NCBI GenBank assembly: GCA_039815185.1
Contig: JBCBZT010000005.1
Location: 172,721-236,720 of the forward strand
From: Cyanobacteria bacterium P01_A01_bin.123
Lineage (GTDB): Bacteria > Cyanobacteriota > Cyanobacteriia > Phormidesmidales > Phormidesmidaceae
Direction of reading: 5' to 3'
DNA length: 64,000 nucleotides
Positions 51,294 through 64,000 of this stretch are shown one piece after another (position 1 is the first letter of the stretch; each line of letters opens with the position of its first letter). The position numbers and the translations under genes are program-made. The notes under the pieces were generated by a model. The model saw only the letters and a list, made by a program, of their open reading frames with translations. It was not told where the DNA came from and searched no databases.

Positions 51294-51480
51294 ATGGTCT
51301 ATCAACGGAAGAAGCGCTCTTACGAACCGGAGCCCCAGCAGCAAGTGCCGTAGGTGCAAACCGATCTGTTCGCCTCACCCGATTTAGAGACCGAGGACGC
51401 CGACAATCTCTATTCCGTGGCTGAGGCGACAGCCGTCCCCAGCTTAGAGACCCTACAGCGACGGGTCAGTAACCCAGGCT
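51294..51480 (+). pseudogene. N-terminal relic of a paralog of the DUF4157 protein at 12506
   Basis: MVYQRKKRSYEPEPQQQVP*VQTDLFASPDLETEDADNLYSV; TAG at 51351. Confidence 0.8.
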
Positions 51481-52606
51481 ATGAGGACGCGTTGGGACGT
51501 TGGGCATCGATCTCATCGATGCGAACCTGTAAAGCTGCCACCGACTCCGTATCCCCTAACGTCTTATACAGTTCCTGGGCCGCCTGCAGATGCGACATGG
51601 CTTCGCCATATGCGGTCTGTCGGATCGCCACATTAGCCAGGCCAACATGACTTTGAGCCTGCAGCTCCTGCTGATTCGCGGCCTCAGCCAGGGTTAAGGC
51701 CTGCTGGAAGCCCGCCTGGGCCAACAGGGGGAGACTCATAATCTGGTATGCCTCTCCCTGCAAGAGATAGATCTGGGGGTTTTCGGTTCCTGCCTCAATT
51801 CGGGCTTCTACAACATCCAATGCCGCTTGGTTCAGGGCATAGCTGTCCCAATCAGGATCGCTGTGCTCAAACTCTAAGTACGCTAATGCTAGGGCGATCG
51901 CCTCTACGTCAGGCTCTAAAGTCTGGGCTTGAATAGCTGCCACCTGACTTTGAACCCGCTCAGCTTCAGCTACCGGCAGCACTGCAAATTGAACCGGCAG
52001 ATCACCTGCCGAGGAGAGACCCGTATCTGCCGAGACGATGACGCTATAGGTATAGTTTGGGCGAAACGTTACGGTCTCGGGTAGGATAACTGCGGTTTCG
52101 CTCACGGTCGTCGTCCAGTCCACACCTGGGCCTTGCAGGCTGACGGTATAGGTCATCGCGCCTTCAACTGGATGCCATTGCAGTATCATCTCCTCTGCAG
52201 TCAGAAGCACTGTATTGCGAGGACTGATCAGATAGGGCAGGGTCGGATTGAAGGGATCTCGCGTGGGATTGTTGATCGCTCCCGAGCGTCTGCTGGCCTC
52301 CCGTGGACAGTAATCAGCGACTCGGTAAGTGTCTGAACTCGTGAAAGTATGCCGACTGCCATTACTGCAGTTGAGGGTGACTCGACTATTGGTATCGACC
52401 CGAATTTGGTGGCCGTTCGAGACCAATAGGCCGTTGAAGGCGCGGTCAGGAGTAATGAGATATCGACCCACCTCGACAGTGCCTTGAACATCGCTGAGGT
52501 AATGGCTGCTGCGAGATTGACTCCAAGCAGGTGATGCGATCGCAGCGATCGCGCTCAGGGCTAGGGCGATTGGGGTGATTAGAGTGGGGGGGCGGTAGGT
52601 CGGCAT
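51479..52606 (-). CDS. Secreted protein with beta-rich N-terminus and C-terminal TPRs
   Basis: Signal peptide, PYLISPRNT, LQWHPVEGA.Y, TPR-like helices. Confidence 0.8.
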   Translation of the reverse strand: MPTYRPPTLITPIALALSAIAAIASPAWSQSRSSHYLSDVQGTVEVGRYLITPDRAFNGLLVSNGHQIRVDTNSRVTLNCSNGSRHTFTSSDTYRVADYCPREASRRSGAINNPTRDPFNPTLPYLISPRNTVLLTAEEMILQWHPVEGAMTYTVSLQGPGVDWTTTVSETAVILPETVTFRPNYTYSVIVSADTGLSSAGDLPVQFAVLPVAEAERVQSQVAAIQAQTLEPDVEAIALALAYLEFEHSDPDWDSYALNQAALDVVEARIEAGTENPQIYLLQGEAYQIMSLPLLAQAGFQQALTLAEAANQQELQAQSHVGLANVAIRQTAYGEAMSHLQAAQELYKTLGDTESVAALQVRIDEIDAQRPNASS

Positions 52607-53853
52607 GATTCGTCGTAGTCGAGGTTGGCAGTTTCCAAACGGTTCCGAGCCAGTAGCAGCCAGGTGCTTTCTTCAGGGTTGGTAATCTGTCCTAATTGGC
52701 AACAGCGCTGCCACTGGGGTATGGTCTCGGTTTGGTCTTGAGCCTCCAGGGTCTGGGCCAGTAGGCAGTAGGCGGAACCTGGATTATTGACATAGTCCTG
52801 AGCCGTTGGTTCTTGGCTAATGTCAATTGCCGTCTCCAGGGCAGACTGGGCGACCGCATGCTGTCCCTGTTCCAAGAGCGCCCACCCTAAGTTTTTGTAG
52901 AGGCTATAGCGCGTTTCCGGATAACTCTGCTGCTGATTCGCCAATATTAGGCCTTGGTATAAGAGCGCTATGGCCCTATTCACATCGGCGGCAGGCGATT
53001 GCAGATAAAGTCGGGCCAGATTGTTATAGGCTTCTGGGAAATCGCCTCGAATCGCAATTAAATATTGGGTCTGGGCCTGCTCTAAGTCCTGGATATCTTC
53101 GTAGAGGGTGCCGAGGTTATAGTGGGCATTAACGTTGTCTGGATTCAGCGAAATCGCCAGGTTGTAACTCTGCTCGGCAGAACCCAACTTGCCAGCAGCT
53201 TGCTGGTTCTGGCCGCGTTGGCTGTACTGCTTGGACAGGGTGGGGAGTGCCAGCCAAAAGGCTACGAGCACGCTCGTCAGCAGGGCAGTGGAGCCAAACT
53301 GAGCGCGCACCCGCCAGGTTTGAGGCACCTGAGCGCGATCTAAAAGTTTCTGCAAGCCCTGATGACCCGCCTCGGTCAAGTCACTGCGGGCCTTTAAAAG
53401 GGTCAGCAAGTTAGAGAGGGCCACGGCTGAAAGTCCGACCACGCCAGCCCCACCCAGCAGAAAACGGCTACTAATGGTCACTAACAGGCCAAGGCTGGTT
53501 GCCCAGGCGAGAGTTGTCAGGCCCTTAAAGAACCAGTCACTGGGTGACTTCACCGTTTCATCCAGCCACCACCACCACTGCTCTCGGGATTTTGGAAAGC
53601 TTCGTCGATAGGTGCTGAAATCCAATTGCCTCACTAGGACTACCGCCTGTTTACGCAGCTGCTGATCCAGGTCATAAATTGCCTGCAGTTGATGGGCTCC
53701 GGGCGCGGTCTCCTCCCCCAAGGCCAGGTGTAAGGTATCCCGGGCATTCAAGACTTGCAAGACTTTCTGTGTCTGGGGCGTTGGCTCACTGAGGCAGGCC
53801 ACTAGGGCAGCACGATAAGCGGTGAGGGCAGCACCAACAGCACTCAAGGACAT
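52579..53853 (-). CDS. Membrane TPR protein
   Basis: WWWWLD, about 3 TM, AHYNLGTLYE / AYNNLARLY TPRs. Confidence 0.85.
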   Translation of the reverse strand: MSLSAVGAALTAYRAALVACLSEPTPQTQKVLQVLNARDTLHLALGEETAPGAHQLQAIYDLDQQLRKQAVVLVRQLDFSTYRRSFPKSREQWWWWLDETVKSPSDWFFKGLTTLAWATSLGLLVTISSRFLLGGAGVVGLSAVALSNLLTLLKARSDLTEAGHQGLQKLLDRAQVPQTWRVRAQFGSTALLTSVLVAFWLALPTLSKQYSQRGQNQQAAGKLGSAEQSYNLAISLNPDNVNAHYNLGTLYEDIQDLEQAQTQYLIAIRGDFPEAYNNLARLYLQSPAADVNRAIALLYQGLILANQQQSYPETRYSLYKNLGWALLEQGQHAVAQSALETAIDISQEPTAQDYVNNPGSAYCLLAQTLEAQDQTETIPQWQRCCQLGQITNPEESTWLLLARNRLETANLDYDESCRPTAPPL

Positions 53854-53887
53854 GACTCGACACCGGGAACAGTGGACTCATTCTAAA

Positions 53888-56800
53888 TCAGGGGGTGAAA
53901 CCTGCTGAGGGTGGCAACGGACGCCAATTGCCAGAGGCAATAAATGCTGCCCAGTAATAGGGATGCCGATATTCCGACGATTGTAGAAAGGCTAACTGCG
54001 TCTCTCGCAGGGCGGCATCTCGATGTCTACCCGTGAGTAAGCGCTCGTAATAAGCCACCATCAATTCCTGGGTGGCGGTGTCATCCACCTTCCAGAGGCT
54101 GATCACCTGGCTCTGAGAGCCCGCTAACACCAACGCCCGTCGCAAGCCATAGACCCCTTCCCCAGCGGCTAGAGTACCGACCCCAGTTTCACAGGCCGAG
54201 AGAACCACCAGTTGGGTGCCACGCAGATTTAATCCCGTCACTTCTAACGCCGTGAGAATGCCATCCTGCTCTGGCCCACTTTGACCCCCAACTGCAGCCC
54301 CCGCCAGAATCAACCCGGACTGCAGCAGCGGGTTGAGGGTTTCTGTGGCGGGTTCAAAGAAGCCATGGGTAGCAATGTGCAAAATGCTAGGCTGCGGTGT
54401 TTGTTTAATCACCGCTTCGGTGGCGTTGGTGGTGGTATAGGGGTCAGCTCCCAACAAGGTAGCAATCTGCTCCACTTCCACCTGGGTACCCGGTAGGGCG
54501 GGAAAGATCCGGTTAGCAAAATCAATGGTGCGGGTATCAGCCTGGGCCGCGAGTGCACCCGGACGACCATAGGTGGGGTTGCCGACCAGTAGCGCGGAGC
54601 TGGGGCTGGCGGGGGTGATATCCAAGCGCATCAGGTCACGGCCTGAGGTGAGGTAGCGGAACTGATACTGCTCCACCAGGTAGTTGCCAGAGTCATTAAC
54701 GAGGGCTTCAAAGGGAATCAGGTTGAGGACGCCATTCGGGGCAATGAAGACAGTGGTGGTATCCCCCAGCACTTCGTGCACTGGGGCCATGACTAAGGTA
54801 TCAAGTGCCTGAGCGCTGGCTTTGACCTGACCAATGGGGCTCCCTGCAGTGGCTAGGTCTCTGGAGAACGTTTCGACAGCAGTTTCAATGGCGGCAGCAG
54901 GGCCGAGGTCGATGCCCTGGAGCGTGCCATCGGGCTGCAGCACATAGGCGGCGTAGCGATACTCCCCAACGCGAGATTGTTCAGGGGCCGTGGGGTTTAA
55001 GGGCCGGTAGCGAATGAACTCCACTAGGGCGGTGGCGGGGGGCAAGGTCGCTTGGATGTCCATCACCGTGGGAGAAGCCGCCAGTGCAGCAAAGTCAGGG
55101 CTAAGCCGACTGAGCTGGTCCGTTAAGTCGCGACTGCGCTGTTGCAGCTCACGCAGTTGAGTTTCATAGGCAGCCAGGGCCGATGGGTCATTGGGTGGAT
55201 TATTGTTGAGGGCGGAGAGTTGGCTGTTGACGGCATTTAAGTCATCGAATAGCACCAGTGCCGCCGGGTCATCATCCAGTTGATTGCGCAGGTTGGTGAA
55301 GATGTCGAGGATGCGGCCTTTGCGCTGCAGCAGCGTCGAGAATGCCAGTTGGGCGGCCTCTTCATCCGTCGGTAGGTCATTCAGATGAAGGCTAATGGCC
55401 GTATCAGTTGTACCTGAGACTGTAGCCAGATAGTCCCGTTTATTGGCATCATCCCCCCCCACTAGATTACGACTGAGGACAGTTTCTTCCACCGCTATCC
55501 CCCGACTTAGGTAGCTGAGGGCAGACTGAAGTTGGCCTTGGATATGATACTGCAAGGACAATTGATTCAGACTCTGAGCGGTAGCGGGATGGTCTGGGCC
55601 TAAGGCGGATTCTCGAATCTCCAGGACCCTCTGAAAGAGGGGTTCTGCTTCCCCATAGCGGCCCTGAGAACGATATAGCGCAGCCAGATTATTCAGGCCA
55701 GTGGCGGTATAGTGATGGTCTGGGCCTAAGGCGGATTCTCGAATCTCCAGGGAACGCTGATAGAGGGGTTCTGCTTCCTCATAGCGACCCTGTGAGTCGT
55801 ACAGCGCGGCCAGATTATTCAGGCTGCTGGCAGTTAGGGGATGGTCTGGGCCTAAGGCGGATTCTCGAATCTCCAGGACCCTCTGAAAGAGGGGTTCTGC
55901 TTCCCCATAGCGGCCCTGAGCCTCGTACAGCGCGGCCAGATTATTCAGACTGTTAGCAGTATCGGGATGGGCCGGATCTAAGACGGACTCCTGAATTGAC
56001 AGGGTCCGTAGATAAAGGGGTTCTGCTTCCTCATAGCGGCCCTGTAAGTGGTACAGCGCGGCCAAATTATTCAGGGTGAGGGCGGTATTAGGATGGGTCG
56101 GGCCTAAGGTGGATTCAAGAATCTCCAGGGAACGCTGATAGAGCGGTTCTGCTTCCCCATAGCGGCCCTGTGCATCGTACAGCAAGGCCAGGCCATTGAG
56201 GGTGGTAGCGGTATAGGGATGGTCTGAGCCTAAGGCGGATTCTCGAATCTCCAGGGCCCGCTGAAAGAGGGGCTCTGCTTCCCTATAACGACCTTGAAAC
56301 TCGTACATCAAGGCCAGATTATTCAGGCTGACGGCAGTATCGGGATGGTTAGGGCCTAAGACGGATTCTCGAATCTCTAGGGCCTGTAGATAAAGGGGTT
56401 CTGCTTCCTCATAGCGACCCTGTGAGTCGTACAGCAAGGCCAGATTATTCAGGCTGACGACGGTATCGGGATGGTTAGGGCCTAAGGCGGCCTCATTAAT
56501 CGCCAGGGCTTCCTCGGCGAGGGGTATCGCCTCGCTGTAATGACCAGCTTGGTAGAGGCTATTGACTTGCTGATTGAGTTGATTCATCTGCGCCAGGGTT
56601 GGCTCAGGTGCCGTGGCAGGGCGGGTATGTAGCTGATAGCTGCCAGTATCTCCCACCCCATCACTGTTCGCTATTAAGGTGTAAGTGTCCTTAGTCGGCA
56701 AGGTTAGAGTGAGGTGGAAATTCGTGCCCTCACCACCATCATCATCCTCAGCAATAGGCTCTCCGGTCAGGCTGAGCAGGATGAGATAGGCATCGAAGTT

Positions 56801-56998
56801 GTCACTACTTAGCTCGAAGGTGAGGGGTTCGCCAGATGTGTCCGTGACGTTCTTAATCGTGGGGCTGGCGGTTTGGGCAATAGCTATTTTGGAGGGCAAG
56901 CTACCGAGGCTGGCGCTGCTAAGCAAGACGGTGAATAGTCCCGTAATAGTTACAGAACGACAGCGTCTGAGACTAGTACTAGAGAGGGAAATAAACAT
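53888..56998 (-). CDS. PPC-TPR-CHAT (caspase-like) protein
   Basis: Signal-like N-terminus, DAYL..DDDGGEG PPC domain, about 9 42-aa TPRs, LHIATHGF and VVLSACETG catalytic His/Cys, HPYYWAAF. Confidence 0.95.
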   Translation of the reverse strand: MFISLSSTSLRRCRSVTITGLFTVLLSSASLGSLPSKIAIAQTASPTIKNVTDTSGEPLTFELSSDNFDAYLILLSLTGEPIAEDDDGGEGTNFHLTLTLPTKDTYTLIANSDGVGDTGSYQLHTRPATAPEPTLAQMNQLNQQVNSLYQAGHYSEAIPLAEEALAINEAALGPNHPDTVVSLNNLALLYDSQGRYEEAEPLYLQALEIRESVLGPNHPDTAVSLNNLALMYEFQGRYREAEPLFQRALEIRESALGSDHPYTATTLNGLALLYDAQGRYGEAEPLYQRSLEILESTLGPTHPNTALTLNNLAALYHLQGRYEEAEPLYLRTLSIQESVLDPAHPDTANSLNNLAALYEAQGRYGEAEPLFQRVLEIRESALGPDHPLTASSLNNLAALYDSQGRYEEAEPLYQRSLEIRESALGPDHHYTATGLNNLAALYRSQGRYGEAEPLFQRVLEIRESALGPDHPATAQSLNQLSLQYHIQGQLQSALSYLSRGIAVEETVLSRNLVGGDDANKRDYLATVSGTTDTAISLHLNDLPTDEEAAQLAFSTLLQRKGRILDIFTNLRNQLDDDPAALVLFDDLNAVNSQLSALNNNPPNDPSALAAYETQLRELQQRSRDLTDQLSRLSPDFAALAASPTVMDIQATLPPATALVEFIRYRPLNPTAPEQSRVGEYRYAAYVLQPDGTLQGIDLGPAAAIETAVETFSRDLATAGSPIGQVKASAQALDTLVMAPVHEVLGDTTTVFIAPNGVLNLIPFEALVNDSGNYLVEQYQFRYLTSGRDLMRLDITPASPSSALLVGNPTYGRPGALAAQADTRTIDFANRIFPALPGTQVEVEQIATLLGADPYTTTNATEAVIKQTPQPSILHIATHGFFEPATETLNPLLQSGLILAGAAVGGQSGPEQDGILTALEVTGLNLRGTQLVVLSACETGVGTLAAGEGVYGLRRALVLAGSQSQVISLWKVDDTATQELMVAYYERLLTGRHRDAALRETQLAFLQSSEYRHPYYWAAFIASGNWRPLPPSAGFTP

Positions 56999-57453
56999 TG
57001 GGAGGCACCAATAGAAAAGAGTTGATGGAGCCGACCACACCTACAGGGTTTACTCTCGATATATGGTCTTTTCTGACTATGGCAGTCTGTAATAGTTCCT
57101 TTGGGATATCGCTGCGAGTCATCACGGAGAAGATGTAAAGAAATCAGCGACTATCCAACCTCTTGAGACTAGCTGTAAAGAAATTGACAACCAATCAATC
57201 GCATGAGACTAGCTGCTCGGCGACGCAAATACTCAACCTTGCGAGACTTGCTTCAATCCCTTTGACTGCGCGAATTTAAGTCAGTTTTAAGTTTTTGTGG
57301 TGTCTCACGAGAAAATCAGGATCTTAATGGGTAATGTAGTGTGACAGTTTACTCTTTTAGGCCAAATCTAGGCCAGTACCTCCACCTTCAGATTTATATC
57401 AGTGGGACTCAGACTAAATCTGCTCACGGGCATTCTCAACTGCGTGTGGTAAT

Positions 57454-58860
57454 TCACCAGTAAAGGTCATGTTCTTGACGTACTGCTGCGGCAAACTGTT
57501 GTCGGAGTGAGCAGGGCAACAACACTTCAACCCTGGGTCGCCAGGCCCGCAATCGCTGATGTACGTTTGGATCATGTTCGCGATAAATCGCGCTGTAGTA
57601 AGCATCTTCAGGCGATCGCTGGTCTAAAATTCGCAATAGTTCTTCCCGCGCTTTACCTGTCAGATGCTGTCGAATCAGCTTTTGGGCTTGGGTATAAGAG
57701 ACTTGCTCGAACGTGTCGTGGCGTTTGGTATCTCGAATGTAGCGATCATTCCACTCTTTATCAAACCGTAACAGCAGCAGCTGGGCAGGCTGGTAGTAGT
57801 CAAATCCCCAGGCTTCTGCCATGCGGGTAGCAATTTCGTCAGGGTGAGGCAGGGTTTGGGTGGTTTGCCGGTCGGCTAAAGTCTTGGGAATGGTCGGGTC
57901 TGTCCAGGCAAGGGGGGTGATTTCCAAAATCCGATCGAGGCGATAATTGCGCCAATCGAGACTGTCAGGAGAGGCATTAGGGACTTGGCCAAACCCGCAG
58001 AGGTAAGGCCCCCGGCGAAAGTAGTAAATACAGACGGGATACACCACGATCTCAATAGCTTGAGTGTGTCCTGCACCTTGATAGCGCAGCCGAACGGGGG
58101 GAGTGGGGGTTTGCTGCCATAGGTCAGAGAGCGCGGCTTGCCAATCATCAACACGATCGAGTTTGTGTTGTGGCACCACGTAGTCTACGTGGACAAAAAA
58201 GCGGCGATCGCCCTGGATTTCTCGCGACAGATTTTCGGCGATCGCGGCCAGGTCAGGCTGGGTGAGAAAGGCACTGGCGTTGGGTGCACCTAGATTTTGC
58301 TGAGATTCGGCTTGGGGGATAATCGGCCAGGTGGTCACTCGATAAAAGCTCTGCCCTTGTTGGGTTAACCAGCTAATACTGGTGAGGATGCGCAGGTCAT
58401 TGTAGAGAGTCCGCCGGGTCATGCTAAACAGGCAGGTATTGAGCAGGGTATCCAGGTTAGAGGGGAGTTGGTCATGGGTTTTGAGGGACTGGGCAAATTG
58501 ACGGATCTGGGTCTGAATTTCAGCTGAGTGGGTTTGGGCGTGGCCCTCCCAATCGGATTGGGTATAGCTGAAAGCGGGGGCAAATAACCAGGCGGCAGTG
58601 ACCTTATTGCAGGGACAGTTTGGATCAAGATGGTTTGGCTTTTTCTCTTCGGTGGGATGGGTGGTTGAGAAAAAGCAATCGCGCCAGTCGGCATAGGTAA
58701 ATGGGTTTGTTAGCCCTAGGGTTTGCCCAGCTTCGCCATAGAGCAGATGTAGCCAAACCCAAAGGCGAATGGATTGCAATAGGTTTTGTTTCAGGGCTCC
58801 CCTGGCCAGCCATTGCAGTAGGGGAACGGTGGGGAGTGCTTGCCAAAGCGGTTCAACCAT
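57454..58860 (-). CDS. CRISPR-associated WYL-domain regulator (TIGR03985-like)
   Basis: RLWVWLHLLYG, VYPVCIYYFRRGPYLCGFG, WRNYRLDRI, AWGFDYY, RLRAWRPRVEVLLP. Confidence 0.85.
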   Translation of the reverse strand: MVEPLWQALPTVPLLQWLARGALKQNLLQSIRLWVWLHLLYGEAGQTLGLTNPFTYADWRDCFFSTTHPTEEKKPNHLDPNCPCNKVTAAWLFAPAFSYTQSDWEGHAQTHSAEIQTQIRQFAQSLKTHDQLPSNLDTLLNTCLFSMTRRTLYNDLRILTSISWLTQQGQSFYRVTTWPIIPQAESQQNLGAPNASAFLTQPDLAAIAENLSREIQGDRRFFVHVDYVVPQHKLDRVDDWQAALSDLWQQTPTPPVRLRYQGAGHTQAIEIVVYPVCIYYFRRGPYLCGFGQVPNASPDSLDWRNYRLDRILEITPLAWTDPTIPKTLADRQTTQTLPHPDEIATRMAEAWGFDYYQPAQLLLLRFDKEWNDRYIRDTKRHDTFEQVSYTQAQKLIRQHLTGKAREELLRILDQRSPEDAYYSAIYREHDPNVHQRLRAWRPRVEVLLPCSLRQQFAAAVRQEHDLYW

Positions 58861-58875
58861 TTGGGATATGAGGGC

Positions 58876-59808
58876 CTATGGGGATTGCTGAATTGCGTTC
58901 AAAATATGCTTGAGCAAAATGTCGGGGATGGTTTGGGTTGCTCCCATCAGCCAGGGGCCAGCCTTGATTTCTAGCCAGGGTGTGGTTTGGAGAACTTCAA
59001 ATTCGTCGGACAAGACGCTATGAATTACGGCTATGGGTTTCAAATGGGGCTGGCAGAATTGGTGCCACACATCGACGGCCTCAGGTAGGCGGCTGATAAT
59101 CATGTAATGGGAGCATTGCTCTACCAGGGGCACTTTTTCGCGTTGGGGTAGCCCCCCGACATCTACCAGTAAGCAATCGACTAAGTTACGCAGATTGGCA
59201 ACTGCGTCGGCATGGGATTGAAAGAAGCCGGGAATGAGTTTGGCGGTTTCGGGGTCTTCATGAATCCGATACTCGTGGTTGCGCACCAAGGCTTCAACAA
59301 AGCTGGGCTGCGCCGTCTCGTAGGTCCAGTTGCCTTCACCGTCCCAGCTGGCCCGATGCAGGTAGATGGTGTCATTCGGTAGCTGAGCCGTCAGGCTGAG
59401 TCGGGTGGCGTTGGACAACACGCTTTTGCCGCTGTTAGGCGGTCCCCCAATTAGGATCGCCGGGCAGGGTTGACGGTTGAGGGTGACGGGGAGCCTGTCG
59501 CCAATGGCGGGTGACTCGACACGGCTGTGGATAACGATGACAGCTTGGCTGCGGGCATCGTAACAGCCGAGCCAGGGAGCCGCTTGGCATTTGTGGATCA
59601 ATGCCCCATAGAGCCAGGTGGGCGATCGCCCGTATAACACCACTTCCCGCGTCAGGTTAATCTCGGGTGGCAATTTGAGGGTAGGCAAACAATCGGGGTG
59701 AACAACTGGGCTATTGAGGGTGATCGCAAGGGTTTGGAGACTGCCGCTGTGGGAGGACAGTAGGGTTAGGTTGAGCTGGACTGGGTGCAAAGCGTTAGAG
59801 GACAGCAT
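58876..59808 (-). CDS. Csx3-like domain fused to P-loop ATPase
   Basis: VVLYGRSPTWLYG...YDAR..V + IGGPPNSGKS, WDGEGNW, LVDVGG; start at ATG 59808 overlapping csx3 stop. Confidence 0.85.
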   Translation of the reverse strand: MLSSNALHPVQLNLTLLSSHSGSLQTLAITLNSPVVHPDCLPTLKLPPEINLTREVVLYGRSPTWLYGALIHKCQAAPWLGCYDARSQAVIVIHSRVESPAIGDRLPVTLNRQPCPAILIGGPPNSGKSVLSNATRLSLTAQLPNDTIYLHRASWDGEGNWTYETAQPSFVEALVRNHEYRIHEDPETAKLIPGFFQSHADAVANLRNLVDCLLVDVGGLPQREKVPLVEQCSHYMIISRLPEAVDVWHQFCQPHLKPIAVIHSVLSDEFEVLQTTPWLEIKAGPWLMGATQTIPDILLKHILNAIQQSP

Positions 59809-60154
59809 CGGGAATTGTGACAATGAGGACTTCACCTTCTGCAACCTGAGGGGAGTGGGTGGCGACGACGACGGCACCGCCAGAATGGGGCACATCGTTG
59901 CCGAAGCGGGGGTCAAAGCAGGCGACCCAAGCGGCGGCATGGCAAGCGTGTACGAGGTAGCCGGAGAGCCAGAGGGGAATTTTGCCTTCAATCACAATCC
60001 CTTGACTCCAAAGGATCGGATCTGGCATTTTCACAGTTTTGAGGGCGTCGGGGGTGAGGATGCCGGTGGGGGTATTGATATGCACATGGAGGTGTTGGTA
60101 GGGCAGACCCGCCTGGGTTTGGTGGGTTGCCAGTCGGAGTTCAACAGCAGTCAT
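59795..60154 (-). CDS. csx3: Csx3/Crn3 ring nuclease
   Basis: GIVIEGKIPLWLSGYLVHACHAAAWVACFDPR...GAVVVATH. Confidence 0.9.
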   Translation of the reverse strand: MTAVELRLATHQTQAGLPYQHLHVHINTPTGILTPDALKTVKMPDPILWSQGIVIEGKIPLWLSGYLVHACHAAAWVACFDPRFGNDVPHSGGAVVVATHSPQVAEGEVLIVTIPDAVL

Positions 60155-60278: not shown

Positions 60279-60875
60279 TTGATGATGCAGCGACTGGTAT
60301 TGACCCACACCTTTGAAAAGGCGCTTGAATATGCGGTGCAGCTGCACAGGCATCAGTGGCGTAAGGTCAATGAAGCGCCCTATGTGTCGCATCTGTTGGC
60401 GGTGGCGGCGCTGGTTTTAGAGGATGGCGGGAGTGAAAGTGAGGCGATCGCGGCTCTGTTTCACGACGCGGTGGAAGACCAGGGGGGTGATTCAACCTTG
60501 GCTCAGATTCGAGTCCGGTTTGGAGAGGCGGTGGCGGAGATTGTACAGGGATGTACTGAACCGCCAAGGGCGCAGTATCCGTCTTGGTATGACCATAAGC
60601 GGGCCTATTTTGAACAGGTCCGCTCGGCTTTGCCTGCGGTGCAGCGGGTGTTATTGGCCGATAAGTTGCACAATGGGCGATCGCTGTTGCGAAATTGGGC
60701 AGAGTTTGGGGAGGCAATGTGGGGGGCGTTTAAGGGCGATCGCGCCCAGGTGCTTTGGTTTTATCAGCAGGCAGCGACGTGTTTTGGGGAGGTAAAGTCG
60801 GGGTGGATGGCGGATGAGTTGGCGCGGGTGGCTGAGCGGTTGGCTCAAATGGACAAGGCTCACGATGCTGTATGA
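60279..60875 (+). CDS. HD-domain phosphohydrolase (RelA/SpoT-HD/Mesh1-like)
   Basis: H..Q.RK...PYVSHL, AALFHDAVED, LADKLHN. Confidence 0.9.
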   Translation: MMMQRLVLTHTFEKALEYAVQLHRHQWRKVNEAPYVSHLLAVAALVLEDGGSESEAIAALFHDAVEDQGGDSTLAQIRVRFGEAVAEIVQGCTEPPRAQYPSWYDHKRAYFEQVRSALPAVQRVLLADKLHNGRSLLRNWAEFGEAMWGAFKGDRAQVLWFYQQAATCFGEVKSGWMADELARVAERLAQMDKAHDAV

Positions 60876-60943
60876 CAGTTTTGGCTTAGTCTAAACTGGA
60901 ACAATATTGAGCGTTGCCTCAACAGACGCGAGGAGATGGGCGG

Positions 60944-61582
60944 ATGTCAGTCAGCTTAACCCGAGCCGATCGAGTGGTGTTACACAACATCAGCTGGCAG
61001 CAGTTTGAAAATCTACTCAATGACTTGGGAGAGCATCGTACCGCTCGTATTGCTTATGACCAGGGCGCTTTAGAGATTATGACGCCGCTACCCGAGCATG
61101 AGTATTTTAAGGAGACGATTGGTGATGCGATCAAAGATATGGCCGAGGTGCTGAATCTAGATTACGAAAGCTATGGGTCTACCACCTGGCGGCGGGAGGT
61201 GAGACAAGCGGGGCTTGAACCAGACAATTGTTTTTACTTTCAGAACGAGGCTTTGGTTCGTGGCAAACTTGACTTTGATCTCGATCGCGATCCGCCCCCT
61301 GATTTAGCCCTCGAAATTGATGTAACGAGTAAGTCATTGGATCGCTTTCCAATTTATGCCCGTTTAGGCATTCCTGAACTTTGGTGCTACGACGATGGCT
61401 TGTTGAAGATTTATCGCCTCCAGCAGGAGCAGTACGTGCAAGCTGAGGAGAGCGATATCTTTCCGTCGTTGGCAATTCAAGGGTTGCCCCGCCTGATTGA
61501 GGCATATCGCAATCAAGGGAGATTGGCTTTGCGGCGTGCTGTGCGGCAGTGGGCCACTGAACAGATCACCCCAAAGGGCTAA
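60944..61582 (+). CDS. Uma2 family endonuclease
   Basis: ISWQQFE, EPDNCFY, PPPDLALEIDVTS, YARLGIPELW. Confidence 0.93.
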   Translation: MSVSLTRADRVVLHNISWQQFENLLNDLGEHRTARIAYDQGALEIMTPLPEHEYFKETIGDAIKDMAEVLNLDYESYGSTTWRREVRQAGLEPDNCFYFQNEALVRGKLDFDLDRDPPPDLALEIDVTSKSLDRFPIYARLGIPELWCYDDGLLKIYRLQQEQYVQAEESDIFPSLAIQGLPRLIEAYRNQGRLALRRAVRQWATEQITPKG

Positions 61583-61630
61583 CGGCTGCGCTCTAATACA
61601 CTCCGATGGTTGTCTTTGGCGGAGGCAAGG

Positions 61631-62380
61631 TTAGACCGTGTCTGGATCAACACCAAGCTGTCTGAGGCGTTCGGCGAGGCGTTCGGCTTTAGTGGGTAGC
61701 CAGTTGTCTGCTGTGTCGTACCAGCGTAGCCAGGTGCGGGGGATGTCGCGATAGTCGCCCTGCCAAAGCCCGATGCCGATGGCGAGTTTGGGTAACCAAA
61801 GGCGGGATGTTTCGAGAGACAGTTCTTCGTATTCGCCAGAGACTAGGGTAAAGCCCCGCAGTTGGTTGCTGTAGCGGTTGTAGGTGATGTAGTAGGGGAC
61901 CCGCAAAAGATTTTGGTAAACCTGCCATTTAGTGGGCGGTTGGTCGGGAGCGGGGACGGTTTGGCCGAGGTCTTCGGCTTCGGTGCCGGGTGAGAGCAAT
62001 TCGACGATGATGGCGGGGCTGATCCCTTCTTGCCATAGGACGTAGCTGAGGCGCAGGTCGGTTTCTTCGTATAGGCGGGGAACGCCTGGGACGGCAAACC
62101 AATCGGGGCGTTTATACCAGCGGGGATGGCGGACGTCGTAATACAGGTTGAGGTCACCGGCGGTGAAGATTTGGTTGGTGGCGTAGTCTGCTAGGCGAAA
62201 GGTTTCGCTCAGCAGTTGGGGTTGGAGGTAATGAAATAAGTCTCGCGACAGGCTAGCGCCAACGTCTGGCAACCCAGGCTCCTCTAGCTGTTCGCTGGGC
62301 AGATCATACATGGTTGGCAGTGTTTCTTTGGGGGGGAGCGGCGGGTCGGCCTGGGTGATGTGGATGGGCTGGGAAACCAT
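61631..62380 (-). CDS. Uma2 family endonuclease with in-frame 8-aa insertion
   Basis: LPTMYDLPSE..EPGLPD, RPDWFAV, VELLSPGT. Confidence 0.9.
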   Translation of the reverse strand: MVSQPIHITQADPPLPPKETLPTMYDLPSEQLEEPGLPDVGASLSRDLFHYLQPQLLSETFRLADYATNQIFTAGDLNLYYDVRHPRWYKRPDWFAVPGVPRLYEETDLRLSYVLWQEGISPAIIVELLSPGTEAEDLGQTVPAPDQPPTKWQVYQNLLRVPYYITYNRYSNQLRGFTLVSGEYEELSLETSRLWLPKLAIGIGLWQGDYRDIPRTWLRWYDTADNWLPTKAERLAERLRQLGVDPDTV

Positions 62381-62439
62381 GGGGATGATCGGTGGGGAGG
62401 TTAGTTCAATTGTAGTCAGGCGTTATTCAGAGTGAACCT

Positions 62440-62760
62440 TTGGTTCGGGGTCGAGAGAGTCTTGATTTGAATGCGGGGGATCCGCCGCCTGATTTGGTAA
62501 TTGAGATTGACATCAGTACGAATTCGCTGGATAAGCGTCGTTTGTATGCCAATTTGGCGGTTAGGGAGTTTTGGCGGTTTGATGGTAGCGCTATTTCTTT
62601 TTTTGAACTTGAAGGGTCTGGTTATGCGCTTGTAGATCGCAGTTCTACGTTTCCGTGGTTTCCGGCTGATAAGCTTTCTGAGTTGTTGGAGGCGCGTTTG
62701 AGGTTGGGTGAAACGCAGACGCTTAGGCAGTTTCGGGATTGGGTTAGGGAGCAGATTTAA
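62440..62760 (+). pseudogene. 5'-truncated Uma2 family gene
   Basis: DPPPDLVIEIDIST...YANLAVREFW corresponds to only the C-terminal half of 60944-61582. Confidence 0.75.
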
Positions 62761-62881: not shown

Positions 62882-64000
62882 GTTTCCAACTATTTCAAAT
62901 TGAGCCCTTTGTTGGGCAAATCCCAGAATCTACTTATGCTTCACATAGCCTATTTCGAGTTTCCAACTATTCCGAAATTAACCCTTCGGTAGGCTGCGAA
63001 ATTCCCGGCTGGCAGATCTTTCCTCTGTGCAAGTTTCCAACTATTCCGAAATTAACCCTTCGGTAGGCGTATACAGCCTTCGCAATGGTGCCCACCAACG
63101 AAGCCAAGTTTCCAACTATTCCGAAATTAACCCTTCGGTAGGTTTCTTTTTTTGCTTACTCGGGAGGCTACCAAGGGTCGCGTTTCCAACTATTCCGAAA
63201 TTAACCCTTCGGTAGGACAATCCTTGCCCGCTTGCCGTCCCTTAATTACGGGAAGTTTCCAACTATTCCGAAATTAACCCTTCGGTAGGAACTTCATGGG
63301 CAACCCCAGCGGCTCGGGACTGGAAAAGCAGGTTTCCAACTATTCCGAAATTAACCCTTCGGTAGGTTTATTTATTTTGATTTGTGGCGCGATCGCTTGG
63401 CCAGGAATGCAGGTTTCCAACTATTCCGAAATTAACCCTTCGGTAGGTTGTCTAATGAAATTCAGAATCTTGCCGAATCAGGTCGTGTTTCCAACTATTC
63501 CGAAGTCATTACCTCCGGCAAAGCCGGAGGCTTGAAAAAAGCCGCTCAAAGCGGCAAGTGGGATGAGAAGCAAACATCCCGATCTGTCCGAACCTAAGAG
63601 CTTCTATCCTGTGAGACTTTTAGACGTCGTAACTCCGAACCTTGTGGAATTGTCAAACTTGACTAGTCCCCCAGCAGAGCTGGGGGTTTACGACGATTAA
63701 TTAACCCTTCGGTAGGCGCGATCGCGACATAGGGACAAACGGGTACTACGAGGGGTTTCCAACTATTCCGAAATTAACCCTTCGGTAGGACTTTTTTTCG
63801 CTCTCCAATATAGACGCGGAGTGCGATCAAGTTTCCAACTATTCCGAAATTAACCCTTCGGTAGGATTGAATCTGGGCCAAATCCTAAGCTTTTCTGGAG
63901 GGAAAGTTTCCAACTATTCCGAAATTAACCCTTCGGTAGGCACTTCGACCTGAGATAAAACTTTGGTAAACTGCTTCAATAGTTTCCAACTATTCCGAAA
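62882..64000 (-). CRISPR. CRISPR array, 35-bp repeat (transcribed sense probably CCTACCGAAGGGTTAATTTCGGAATAGTTGGAAAC), type III-like, continues beyond window
   Basis: Repeats GTTTCCAACTATTCCGAAATTAACCCTTCGGTAGG at 62882 (degenerate), 62959, 63033, 63108, 63182, 63255, 63332, 63413, 63487 (split), 63755, 63831, 63906, 63982 (partial); 12 spacers of 38-46 bp; degenerate left copy and GAAAC end imply minus-strand transcription. Confidence 0.97.
63505..63699 (-). mobile_element. 195-bp non-autonomous IS200/IS605-type element inserted in a CRISPR repeat
   Basis: Subterminal hairpins CCTCCGGC-AAA-GCCGGAGG and CCCCCAGC-AGA-GCTGGGGG; no target duplication; flanks rejoin to an exact repeat. Confidence 0.85.

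Follow-up and report, generated by a model that had tools for sequence, protein, structure and literature searches.

In the Csx3 (Crn3) protein of A. fulgidus (AfCsx3), the residues H57, H60, D69, R71 and H80 are conserved, H60 and D69 are essential, and cyclic tetra-adenylate (cA4) has been shown to induce stacking with the formation of a shared active site (PMC7371418). Fusions of Csx3 to a P-loop domain have been described as well. Shah et al. (2018; PMC6546367) defined Csx3-AAA (cluster 35) and AAA-Csx3 clusters and proposed cyclic oligoadenylate (cOA) as a possible allosteric activator of the ATPase; neither the architecture nor the idea that cOA controls the ATPase is therefore new. The same fusion, termed Csx3′, has been described as a kinase/transferase fusion (PMC7371418), and its Synechocystis representative Slr7080 co-fractionates with the Cmr complex (PMC8136920). 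Reviews call the Csx3′ fusion uncharacterised (PMC8284326, PMC12409355, PMC9676260), and a 2025 survey of ring nucleases still lists it, as has been done since 2018, under unknown function; the 250-aa ring-nuclease cut-off of that survey would exclude a fusion of 310 aa. Here, we describe a standalone Csx3 gene and an overlapping gene for a Csx3′-type fusion in a 64,000-nucleotide stretch (the window) of Cyanobacteria bacterium P01_A01_bin.123 (contig JBCBZT010000005.1, positions 172,721 to 236,720), in which the fused copy appears to have lost two catalytic histidines whereas the standalone copy appears to have kept them.

Judged by sequence, the window fusion belongs to the published cyanobacterial Csx3-“AAA” (Csx3′) family. 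The PADLOC Csx3-AAA model PDLC01045 matches its residues 19–305 (E 1e-65), and it resembles Shah cluster 35 and Slr7080 in having an N-terminal Csx3 and a C-terminal P-loop domain, a length of about 310 aa and a place in a cyanobacterial type III locus (PMC6546367, PMC7371418, PMC8136920); the original prediction, too, names Csx3-ATPase fusions from cyanobacteria. The published accounts treat Csx3-AAA as one family joining a putative ring nuclease to an AAA or kinase/transferase domain, whereas here intact solo and degenerate paired forms are distinguished and the P-loop domain is SIMIBI-like (see below).

Both genes lie on the minus strand in the order standalone-fusion. The standalone gene (59795..60154; 119 aa) was assigned as a Csx3/Crn3 ring nuclease by motif alignment and by Csx3 profiles (PF09620, 86.7 bits against a cut-off of 21; TIGR02579, 77.4 against 55.4), and the fusion gene (58876..59808) starts inside its 3′ end, with a 14-nt overlap. 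The longest fusion frame, 371 aa from TTG 59991, runs through the standalone gene, and no domain was matched by the residues that it adds; since the homologous domain starts at about residue 10 of the 310-aa frame from ATG 59808 and most homologs have some 300–320 aa, this shorter frame is preferred. The motifs named in the original prediction were all present: H69-A-C-H72-x8-D81-P-R83 in the standalone protein, and H72-K-C-Q75-x8-D84-A-R86, G121-GPPNSGKS129 and L214-VDVGG in the fusion. Its naming of the pair H60/D69 was also correct, both residues being essential (PMC7371418). Alignment to AfCsx3, including the H60A structure 6YUD, places Q75 of the fusion at H60 and D84 at D69.

The standalone protein has the fold of AfCsx3 (Crn3; PDB 6YUD, 3WZI) and all five of its active-site residues, H69, H72, D81, R83 and H100 corresponding to H57, H60, D69, R71 and H80, with K58 at the place of R46. 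It differs from AfCsx3 in a Glu at S44, found in 58/58 cyanobacterial standalones, and in an 8-residue loop insert. It looks like an intact cA4 off switch, for which Mn-dependent cA4 cleavage is predicted. In the fused Csx3 domain (59485..59781, residues ~10–108, delimited by alignment and fold), R61 (= R46), W65, H72 (= H57), D84 (= D69) and R86 (= R71) are retained, and the catalytic H60 position is occupied by Gln75 (codon CAA, 59584..59586). A public contig that covers the stretch has the same codon, but this contig may be the source of the window and so does not count as independent. A second loss was overlooked by the original prediction: in the profile-profile alignment (hhalign), Arg96 (codon CGT, 59521..59523) falls on H100 of the standalone protein, that is, H80 is replaced by Arg. 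An “IHS” of the fusion was considered as the H80 motif and ruled out by the family register and hhalign. The fused domain nevertheless remains a recognisable Csx3, with PF09620 at 74.4 bits, scores above the curated cut-offs of both PF09620 and TIGR02579, and a model that superimposes on the AfCsx3 structure with Z 12.8 and a root-mean-square deviation (rmsd) of 1.7 over 93 residues. Unlike AfCsx3, which has no NTPase (nucleoside triphosphatase) partner, it lacks H60 and H80, and on these residues it is a degenerate Csx3 copy; the prediction that it is catalytically disabled is supported, by two substitutions instead of the one that had been noted.

The same residues were surveyed in the best 120 of 385 fusion homologs and in the best 80 of 167 GTDB loci, a set biased to close relatives, in which L031 and L032 come from one metagenome-assembled genome. 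With the window, the loci gave 58 standalones, 57 paired fusions (a standalone just upstream), 17 fusions without a standalone and 4 tandem Csx3-Csx3-NTPase proteins, while 3 loci held an NTPase fragment only; 14 of the 17 were counted as solo, L003, L018 and L053 being dropped as their contigs end upstream. The order standalone-fusion occurs in 56/80 related loci. In this set, the state of the active site varied with the arrangement of the genes: all five residues were present in 55/58 standalones, which fits the role of off switch originally proposed for this copy, and in 12/14 solo fusions, vs. 0/57 paired fusions and 0/8 tandem domains. The binding triad (R/K46, D69 and R71) was found in 57/58 standalones and 13/14 solo fusions, vs. 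4/57 paired fusions and 0/8 tandem domains, and H60 itself was retained in 8/57 paired fusions. None of the 120 homologs had all five residues; H57 was present in 18, H60 in 15, H80 in none and the triad in 17, with the NTPase motifs invariant throughout. A specific, conserved His-to-Gln switch was ruled out by the mixed H60 column of these homologs (R 44, Q 19, H 15).

A sample of 401 genomes, 50 of them with an NTPase match, was surveyed as well. Among its 24 strongest loci, 19 were solo, 4 paired and 1 tandem; H60 was kept in 19/19 solo fusions (all five residues in 14/19, by eye) and in 0/4 paired ones. The loss of the His foreseen for the fusions is a trait of the paired form; the solo fusions, in which the His is kept, go part of the way towards the outcome that was to refute the original prediction. 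The question of function becomes testable in this way, as paired and solo fusions are expected to differ. Four paired fusions (L002, L005, L039, L044) carry HxxH and DxR yet nest among degenerate relatives, possibly by retention or by gene conversion from the adjacent standalone.

The remainder of the fusion (58885..59469, residues ~114–308) is a SIMIBI-like (signal recognition particle, MinD and BioD class) P-loop NTPase domain. The AlphaFold model of the fusion had a mean local confidence (pLDDT) of 89 and a predicted TM-score (pTM) of 0.80, the NTPase domain alone reaching pLDDT 91. Its best structural matches were MinD (Z 13.8, rmsd 4.2, 172 residues aligned) and ApbC (13.6, rmsd 3.8 over 171), followed by a DUF1611-like protein (13.0), ParA (12.7), CTP synthase (12.2), dethiobiotin synthetase (11.8) and a GPN GTPase (11.7); Foldseek returned CTP synthase, GPN and signal recognition particle (SRP) proteins at E ~1e-4. 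As modelled, the “AAA” domain thus folds like SIMIBI NTPases. These are characterised by Walker A, an acidic residue after strand 2 and DxxG, and all three are found here, as GPPNSGKS, Asp156 in RASWDGEGNW and D216-V-G-G, together with invariant C232 and S264; G122, S126-G-K-S129, D156, D216, G218 and G219 are the same in 120/120 homologs. The AAA+ proteins, in turn, have a Walker B of the form hhhhDE and a C-terminal helical lid subdomain. The fusion NTPase has no Walker B DE, the strand ending in D216-x-G-G, and no helical lid, the predicted domain closing with three strands and one helix (pLDDT > 90), so that “AAA” looks a misnomer. Pfam AAA_16 gave 16 bits against a cut-off of 32.6, and the fold lists shown were filled by SIMIBI-type entries, with no AAA+ or Clp1-family entry among them, although absence from such lists is no exclusion. 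For assays, a SIMIBI NTPase or kinase that is activated by dimerisation would be a better model of the domain than an AAA+ motor.

Its place within the class is less clear-cut. With MinD/Mrp/ParA, GPN-loop and SRP GTPases, G3E, CTP synthase and dethiobiotin synthetase it has the core fold, the strand-2 Asp and DxxG in common, whereas the identity is about 10–15% and no single subfamily is prominent. NKxD, the guanine-specificity motif of SIMIBI GTPases, is missing, the expected strand ending in V-I-H263-S264, and so is the signature lysine in the deviant Walker A of MinD/ParA, the fusion having GGPPNSGKS. In the structure atlas, the nearest named neighbours were of the G3E/GPN type, MeaB with a TM-score of 0.64 lying below the bar for naming a family. 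A Clp1/Grc3-type RNA kinase was set aside: weak PDB profile matches to the Clp1/Grc3/NOL9 5′-OH polynucleotide kinases (E 0.09–0.19) were limited to the P-loop.

To account for the pair, we favour, at somewhat less than even odds, a split, asymmetric Crn3 dimer that bears one SIMIBI NTPase, is stacked by cA4 and is timed by the active site of the standalone protein. In such an arrangement, the duplicated Csx3 pair would divide the work, the standalone copy supplying catalysis and the fused copy acting as its degenerate partner. By dimerising with the standalone protein, the fused copy would tether the NTPase to the cA4-degrading complex, with one NTPase per asymmetric dimer. The cA4 made by Cas10 would stack these dimers head-to-tail, as with AfCsx3, and stacking would bring the NTPase domains together. 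Dimerisation serves as the on-switch of many SIMIBI NTPases. The histidines of the standalone protein would then cleave cA4 and end the signal, such that sensing and erasing would reside in one self-limiting complex; the NTPase would most likely tune the decay of the signal or handle a small nucleotide.

The complex prediction for the standalone and fusion proteins scored 0.85, the best control 0.00; 116/157 solved complexes and 2/215 mismatched pairs reached this mark. The runs agreed in at least 98% of contacts with partner pLDDT of at least 89, and the interface was confined to the two Csx3 domains. Domain fusions point the same way. Among 150 representatives of 678 NTPase hits, we counted Csx3-NTPase in 54, NTPase-Csx3-Csx3 in at least 35, the NTPase alone or as a fragment in 32, NTPase-Csx3 in 12 and Csx3-Csx3-NTPase in 10, and one representative (P0148) joins a dead Csx3, the NTPase and an intact Csx3 in a single chain. 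Csx3-Csx3-NTPase also occurs in 4/80 loci. Split gene pairs exist as well, and a Csx3 domain is fused to or near the NTPase in 68/79 metagenome loci. Taken together, the single-chain fusions and the modelling favour one hetero-complex over the two separate modules, a sensor and an eraser, that had been envisaged in the original prediction.

The paired arrangement has a history of its own. In a distant Csx3 subfamily, the loci L118, L119 and L137 likewise pair an intact standalone with a His-less fusion (positions by alignment only), and a tree built from 41 selected domains spoke against placing all paired dead domains in one clade, which was rejected (approximately unbiased test, p 2e-36); the paired degenerate state thus arose at least twice. 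The dead domain is also maintained. Of its fold residues, W50 is present in 57/57 paired fusions and G45 and P48 in 56/57 each, and the pooled ratio of nonsynonymous to synonymous substitutions (dN/dS) over 14 locus pairs, two of them partly saturated, was 0.23 for the dead domain, compared with 0.11 (standalone) and 0.17 (NTPase), which places the degenerate domain under purifying selection.

Several observations weigh against the hetero-complex. Its score shows likeness and not binding, since a solved Csx3 homodimer exists and the prediction does not tell hetero- from homodimers; the pass may reflect memory of that homodimer. In the tandem proteins both domains are degenerate, H57 and H60 being kept together in 0/4 in either domain; genome G029 has no other Csx3 match, and H60 is missing from the distant-subfamily solo fusions L120 and L129, near which no standalone was detected, so a dead domain need not always have an active partner. 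It can also be dropped, as in L040 and P0124, where a standalone-type domain is joined directly to the NTPase. Nor does standalone Csx3 always come with the NTPase: in genus g5, for example, 18/19 genomes have Csx3 and 0/19 an NTPase match. Finally, kin are not independent: within the subfamily of the window, the paired/solo contrast comes down to just 2 changes, which are all that the solo state needs on the NTPase tree (71 rows, with 3 truncated loci and the duplicate L032 left out).

Two sets of loci illustrate other states of the pair. The L040 protein (L040:9932-10912) has Glu44, Lys46 and all catalytic residues and is nested among paired fusions, which makes a deletion of the dead domain likely. 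In L044:2786-3739 and L049:10278-12526, the fusion gene is broken inside the NTPase domain and the standalone is intact.

Of the alternatives, the one that survives best, though we regard it as doubtful, is the model of the original prediction, in which the fusion works apart from the standalone protein and senses cA4 without cleaving it. Its homodimers would stack on cA4 and activate the NTPase as an immune output, the standalone protein being the eraser only. The precedent for this model is Cat1 (TIR-CARF, PDB 9MUD), whose Csx3-like domain sandwiches cA4 between dimers uncleaved, stacking activating the fused enzyme (PMC12162218). Both the paired-fusion profile (E 6.8e-5) and the fusion model (Z 11.2, rmsd 2.5 over 100) match the CARF domain of Cat1, and the spacing of W215/K225/N234 in Cat1, by residue numbers only, equals that of Csx3 W50/H60/D69. 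Of the 57 paired fusions, 27 have Arg or Lys at the H60 position, and 18 have Asn at D69. Unlike the TIR NADase of Cat1, an effector of shown activity, the window fusion has a putative NTPase, an intact paralog next to it and binding residues that are poorly conserved across the family. Residues consistent with binding recur elsewhere. Distant-subfamily paired fusions retain G-R and D-P-K. The “AAA-Csx3” family C3a67 (Shah cluster 67), in which the same NTPase is combined with Csx3, here seen as two tandem domains, shows R46, D69 and R71 in its NTPase-Csx3-Csx3 consensus, the triad lying in the first domain, and no H57/H60; it differs from the window pair in its reverse domain order and single chain. 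The cOA allostery considered by Shah et al. (PMC6546367) would suit such a sensor, too.

The window fusion and its 7 nearest homologs (64–69% identity) retain R46, D69 and R71, which makes it plausible that members of this sub-lineage bind cA4; with the triad in only 4/57 paired fusions and 17/120 homologs, however, “sensor” is not a family-wide property, and few columns of the fused domain vary as much as H57 (3.45 bits). The cA4 sensor originally predicted is thus supported by the Cat1 precedent and the triad of the window copy, and weakened by the rarity of the triad in the family. Furthermore, the locus already carries a candidate transmembrane CARF (TM-CARF) effector, and deletion of slr7080 in Synechocystis left plasmid interference unimpaired, though slr7080 may be of either class, paired or solo. 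If either the hetero-complex or the sensor proved true, an NTPase output would be added to cA4 signalling, and the ring nuclease would be seen to yield pseudo-enzyme subunits repeatedly.

It is rather improbable, in our estimate, that the NTPase itself belongs to the off switch. In such a scheme, Csx3′ would be an adaptor blind to the ligand and would dock the NTPase on the ring nuclease, where it would speed the turnover of the stack or phosphorylate the linear A2 product, possibly with an alarmone hydrolase to complete the clean-up. For AfCsx3, the formation of the complex or the release of product sets the limit on turnover (PMC7371418), most paired fusions show eroded binding residues, and phosphotransfer enzymes such as CTP synthase and dethiobiotin synthetase are among the neighbours by SIMIBI fold. 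The dead-dead tandem proteins, on the other hand, offer no catalytic site to assist. An NTPase-Csx3-Csx3 gene amid phage-like genes on a 167-kb IMG/VR contig, around which no cas gene was noticed over 10.5 kb, would fit an off switch, but it is a single viral case among 2 loci: two queries found no match for the family in 50,697 GenBank phage records, IMG/VR gave none with the near profile and 2 loci with the distant one, of which L133 was weak with no Csx3 domain noticed, and PHROGs gave a weak ATPase match only, for 1/10 proteins. The viral gene (L132:5001-6164) encodes a C3a67-like protein of 387 aa, near thymidylate-/thymidine-kinase-like genes, which splits the catalytic residues, with H57/H60/D69/R71 in its first Csx3 domain and H60/H80 in the second; by these residues, a viral cA4 eraser is possible.

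The hydrolase in question is encoded by a divergent HD gene (60279..60875, plus strand) next to the pair. The protein is nearest to small alarmone hydrolases (PDB 7QOE, E 2e-38), a putative assignment helped by neighbouring hits. A member of this gene family is present in 38/80 related loci, in varying positions and orientations: 32/56 paired, 4/4 tandem and 1/14 solo, a second “solo” row being the truncated L003. Of the 46 genomes whose NTPase match is clear (the 50 less the 4 weakest), 16 have the gene within 11 kb of the NTPase, two solo-fusion genomes among them, but it is near only 1/79 metagenome loci, where flanks were shorter (4 kb), and some HD homolog exists in 104/401 genomes. The alarmone hydrolase is thus a candidate partner, a lead. 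In the literature consulted, we found no account of the paired/solo dichotomy with its repeated origin, the SIMIBI assignment, the selection on the degenerate domain and its predicted dimer with the standalone protein, or this hydrolase link; Makarova 2020, Brown 2020 and supplements lay outside that scope and may bear on them. A more elaborate scheme, to which we give little credence, is that cA4 stacks Crn3:Csx3′ and thereby activates a SIMIBI-fold phosphotransferase making an alarmone-like nucleotide, which the hydrolase erases; if true, a second-tier messenger with its own timer and eraser would lie downstream of cA4. That the fused domain is a decaying duplication leftover, a folding or dimerising tag on an NTPase independent of cA4, is similarly improbable: its mean column identity is 34% vs. 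64% for standalones and it is dropped in L040 and absent from split loci such as L121–L123, but the pooled dN/dS of 0.23, its retention in 57 paired cases, which span many lineages of cyanobacteria, and at least two origins speak against decay.

The type III system expected in the original prediction was found on an adjoining contig. A CRISPR array (62882..64000, plus strand) runs off the contig end, and the last 47 nt of the array contig overlap exactly with the end of contig C130, which bears the rest of the array (60 further repeat matches), cas2, fragments of a reverse transcriptase (RT) and of cas1, a gene for a TM-CARF protein of 307 aa and the type III-B operon cas10-cmr3-cmr4-cmr5-Uma2-cmr6. 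Cas10 (635 aa) has an intact GGDD cyclase motif. The TM-CARF gene (L001:11993-12916; G000 C130:47992-48915) is divergent from cas10 and matches PADLOC CARF_2M (E 2.5e-24), which makes its product a Cam1/Csx13-like candidate effector. With the queries used, no second Cas10, Csx3 or type III system and no Csx1/Csm6/Can-type gene was found in the genome (99.99% complete, 133 contigs). The obvious job of the standalone protein would therefore be to switch the TM-CARF effector off, and the TM-CARF protein is a likelier killing effector than the fusion NTPase; the uncharacterised output of the original prediction has to share the locus with a conventional candidate.

The TIGR03985 WYL-domain CRISPR-associated gene (57454..58860, minus strand) follows 15 nt downstream of the fusion, and a member of its family is present in 65/80 related loci. 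A promoter and terminator scan gave hits near or below shuffle levels and was uninformative. Directly downstream of the WYL gene, three minus-strand genes (51479-57040) form, by eye, a TPR/CHAT protease-like cluster, which includes a 1050-aa protein with 126-nt repeats at 55534-56589. Three Uma2 putative-endonuclease genes or fragments (60914-62760) lie between the HD gene and the array, and Uma2 genes recur within many related cas operons. The array is interrupted for ~270 nt near 63500-63700, and its repeat variant changes part-way, over 62882-64000 and the C130 end, from AATTAACC..GTAGG to ATTTAGCC..GTTGG. On C130, RT-Cas1 (L001:12921-13582; G000 C130:48920-49581) is apparently reduced to two fragments, 101 aa from the N-terminus of RT and 128 aa from the C-terminus of Cas1, beside an intact cas2, so the adaptation module of that locus looks broken; further cas1 matches lie on contigs C2, C8, C129 and C131.

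Csx3 has also been reported in a VMAP system (PMC7159879). In Leptolyngbya PCC 7375 (L025:8075-11150), a standalone-type Csx3 forms the C-terminus of a 729-aa protein, possibly the VMAP-system fusion of that report, and the Csx3′-NTPase gene still follows it. Elsewhere in the window, a 30-nt tandem repeat of ~25–28 copies (282-1301) fits a pentapeptide-repeat coding region.

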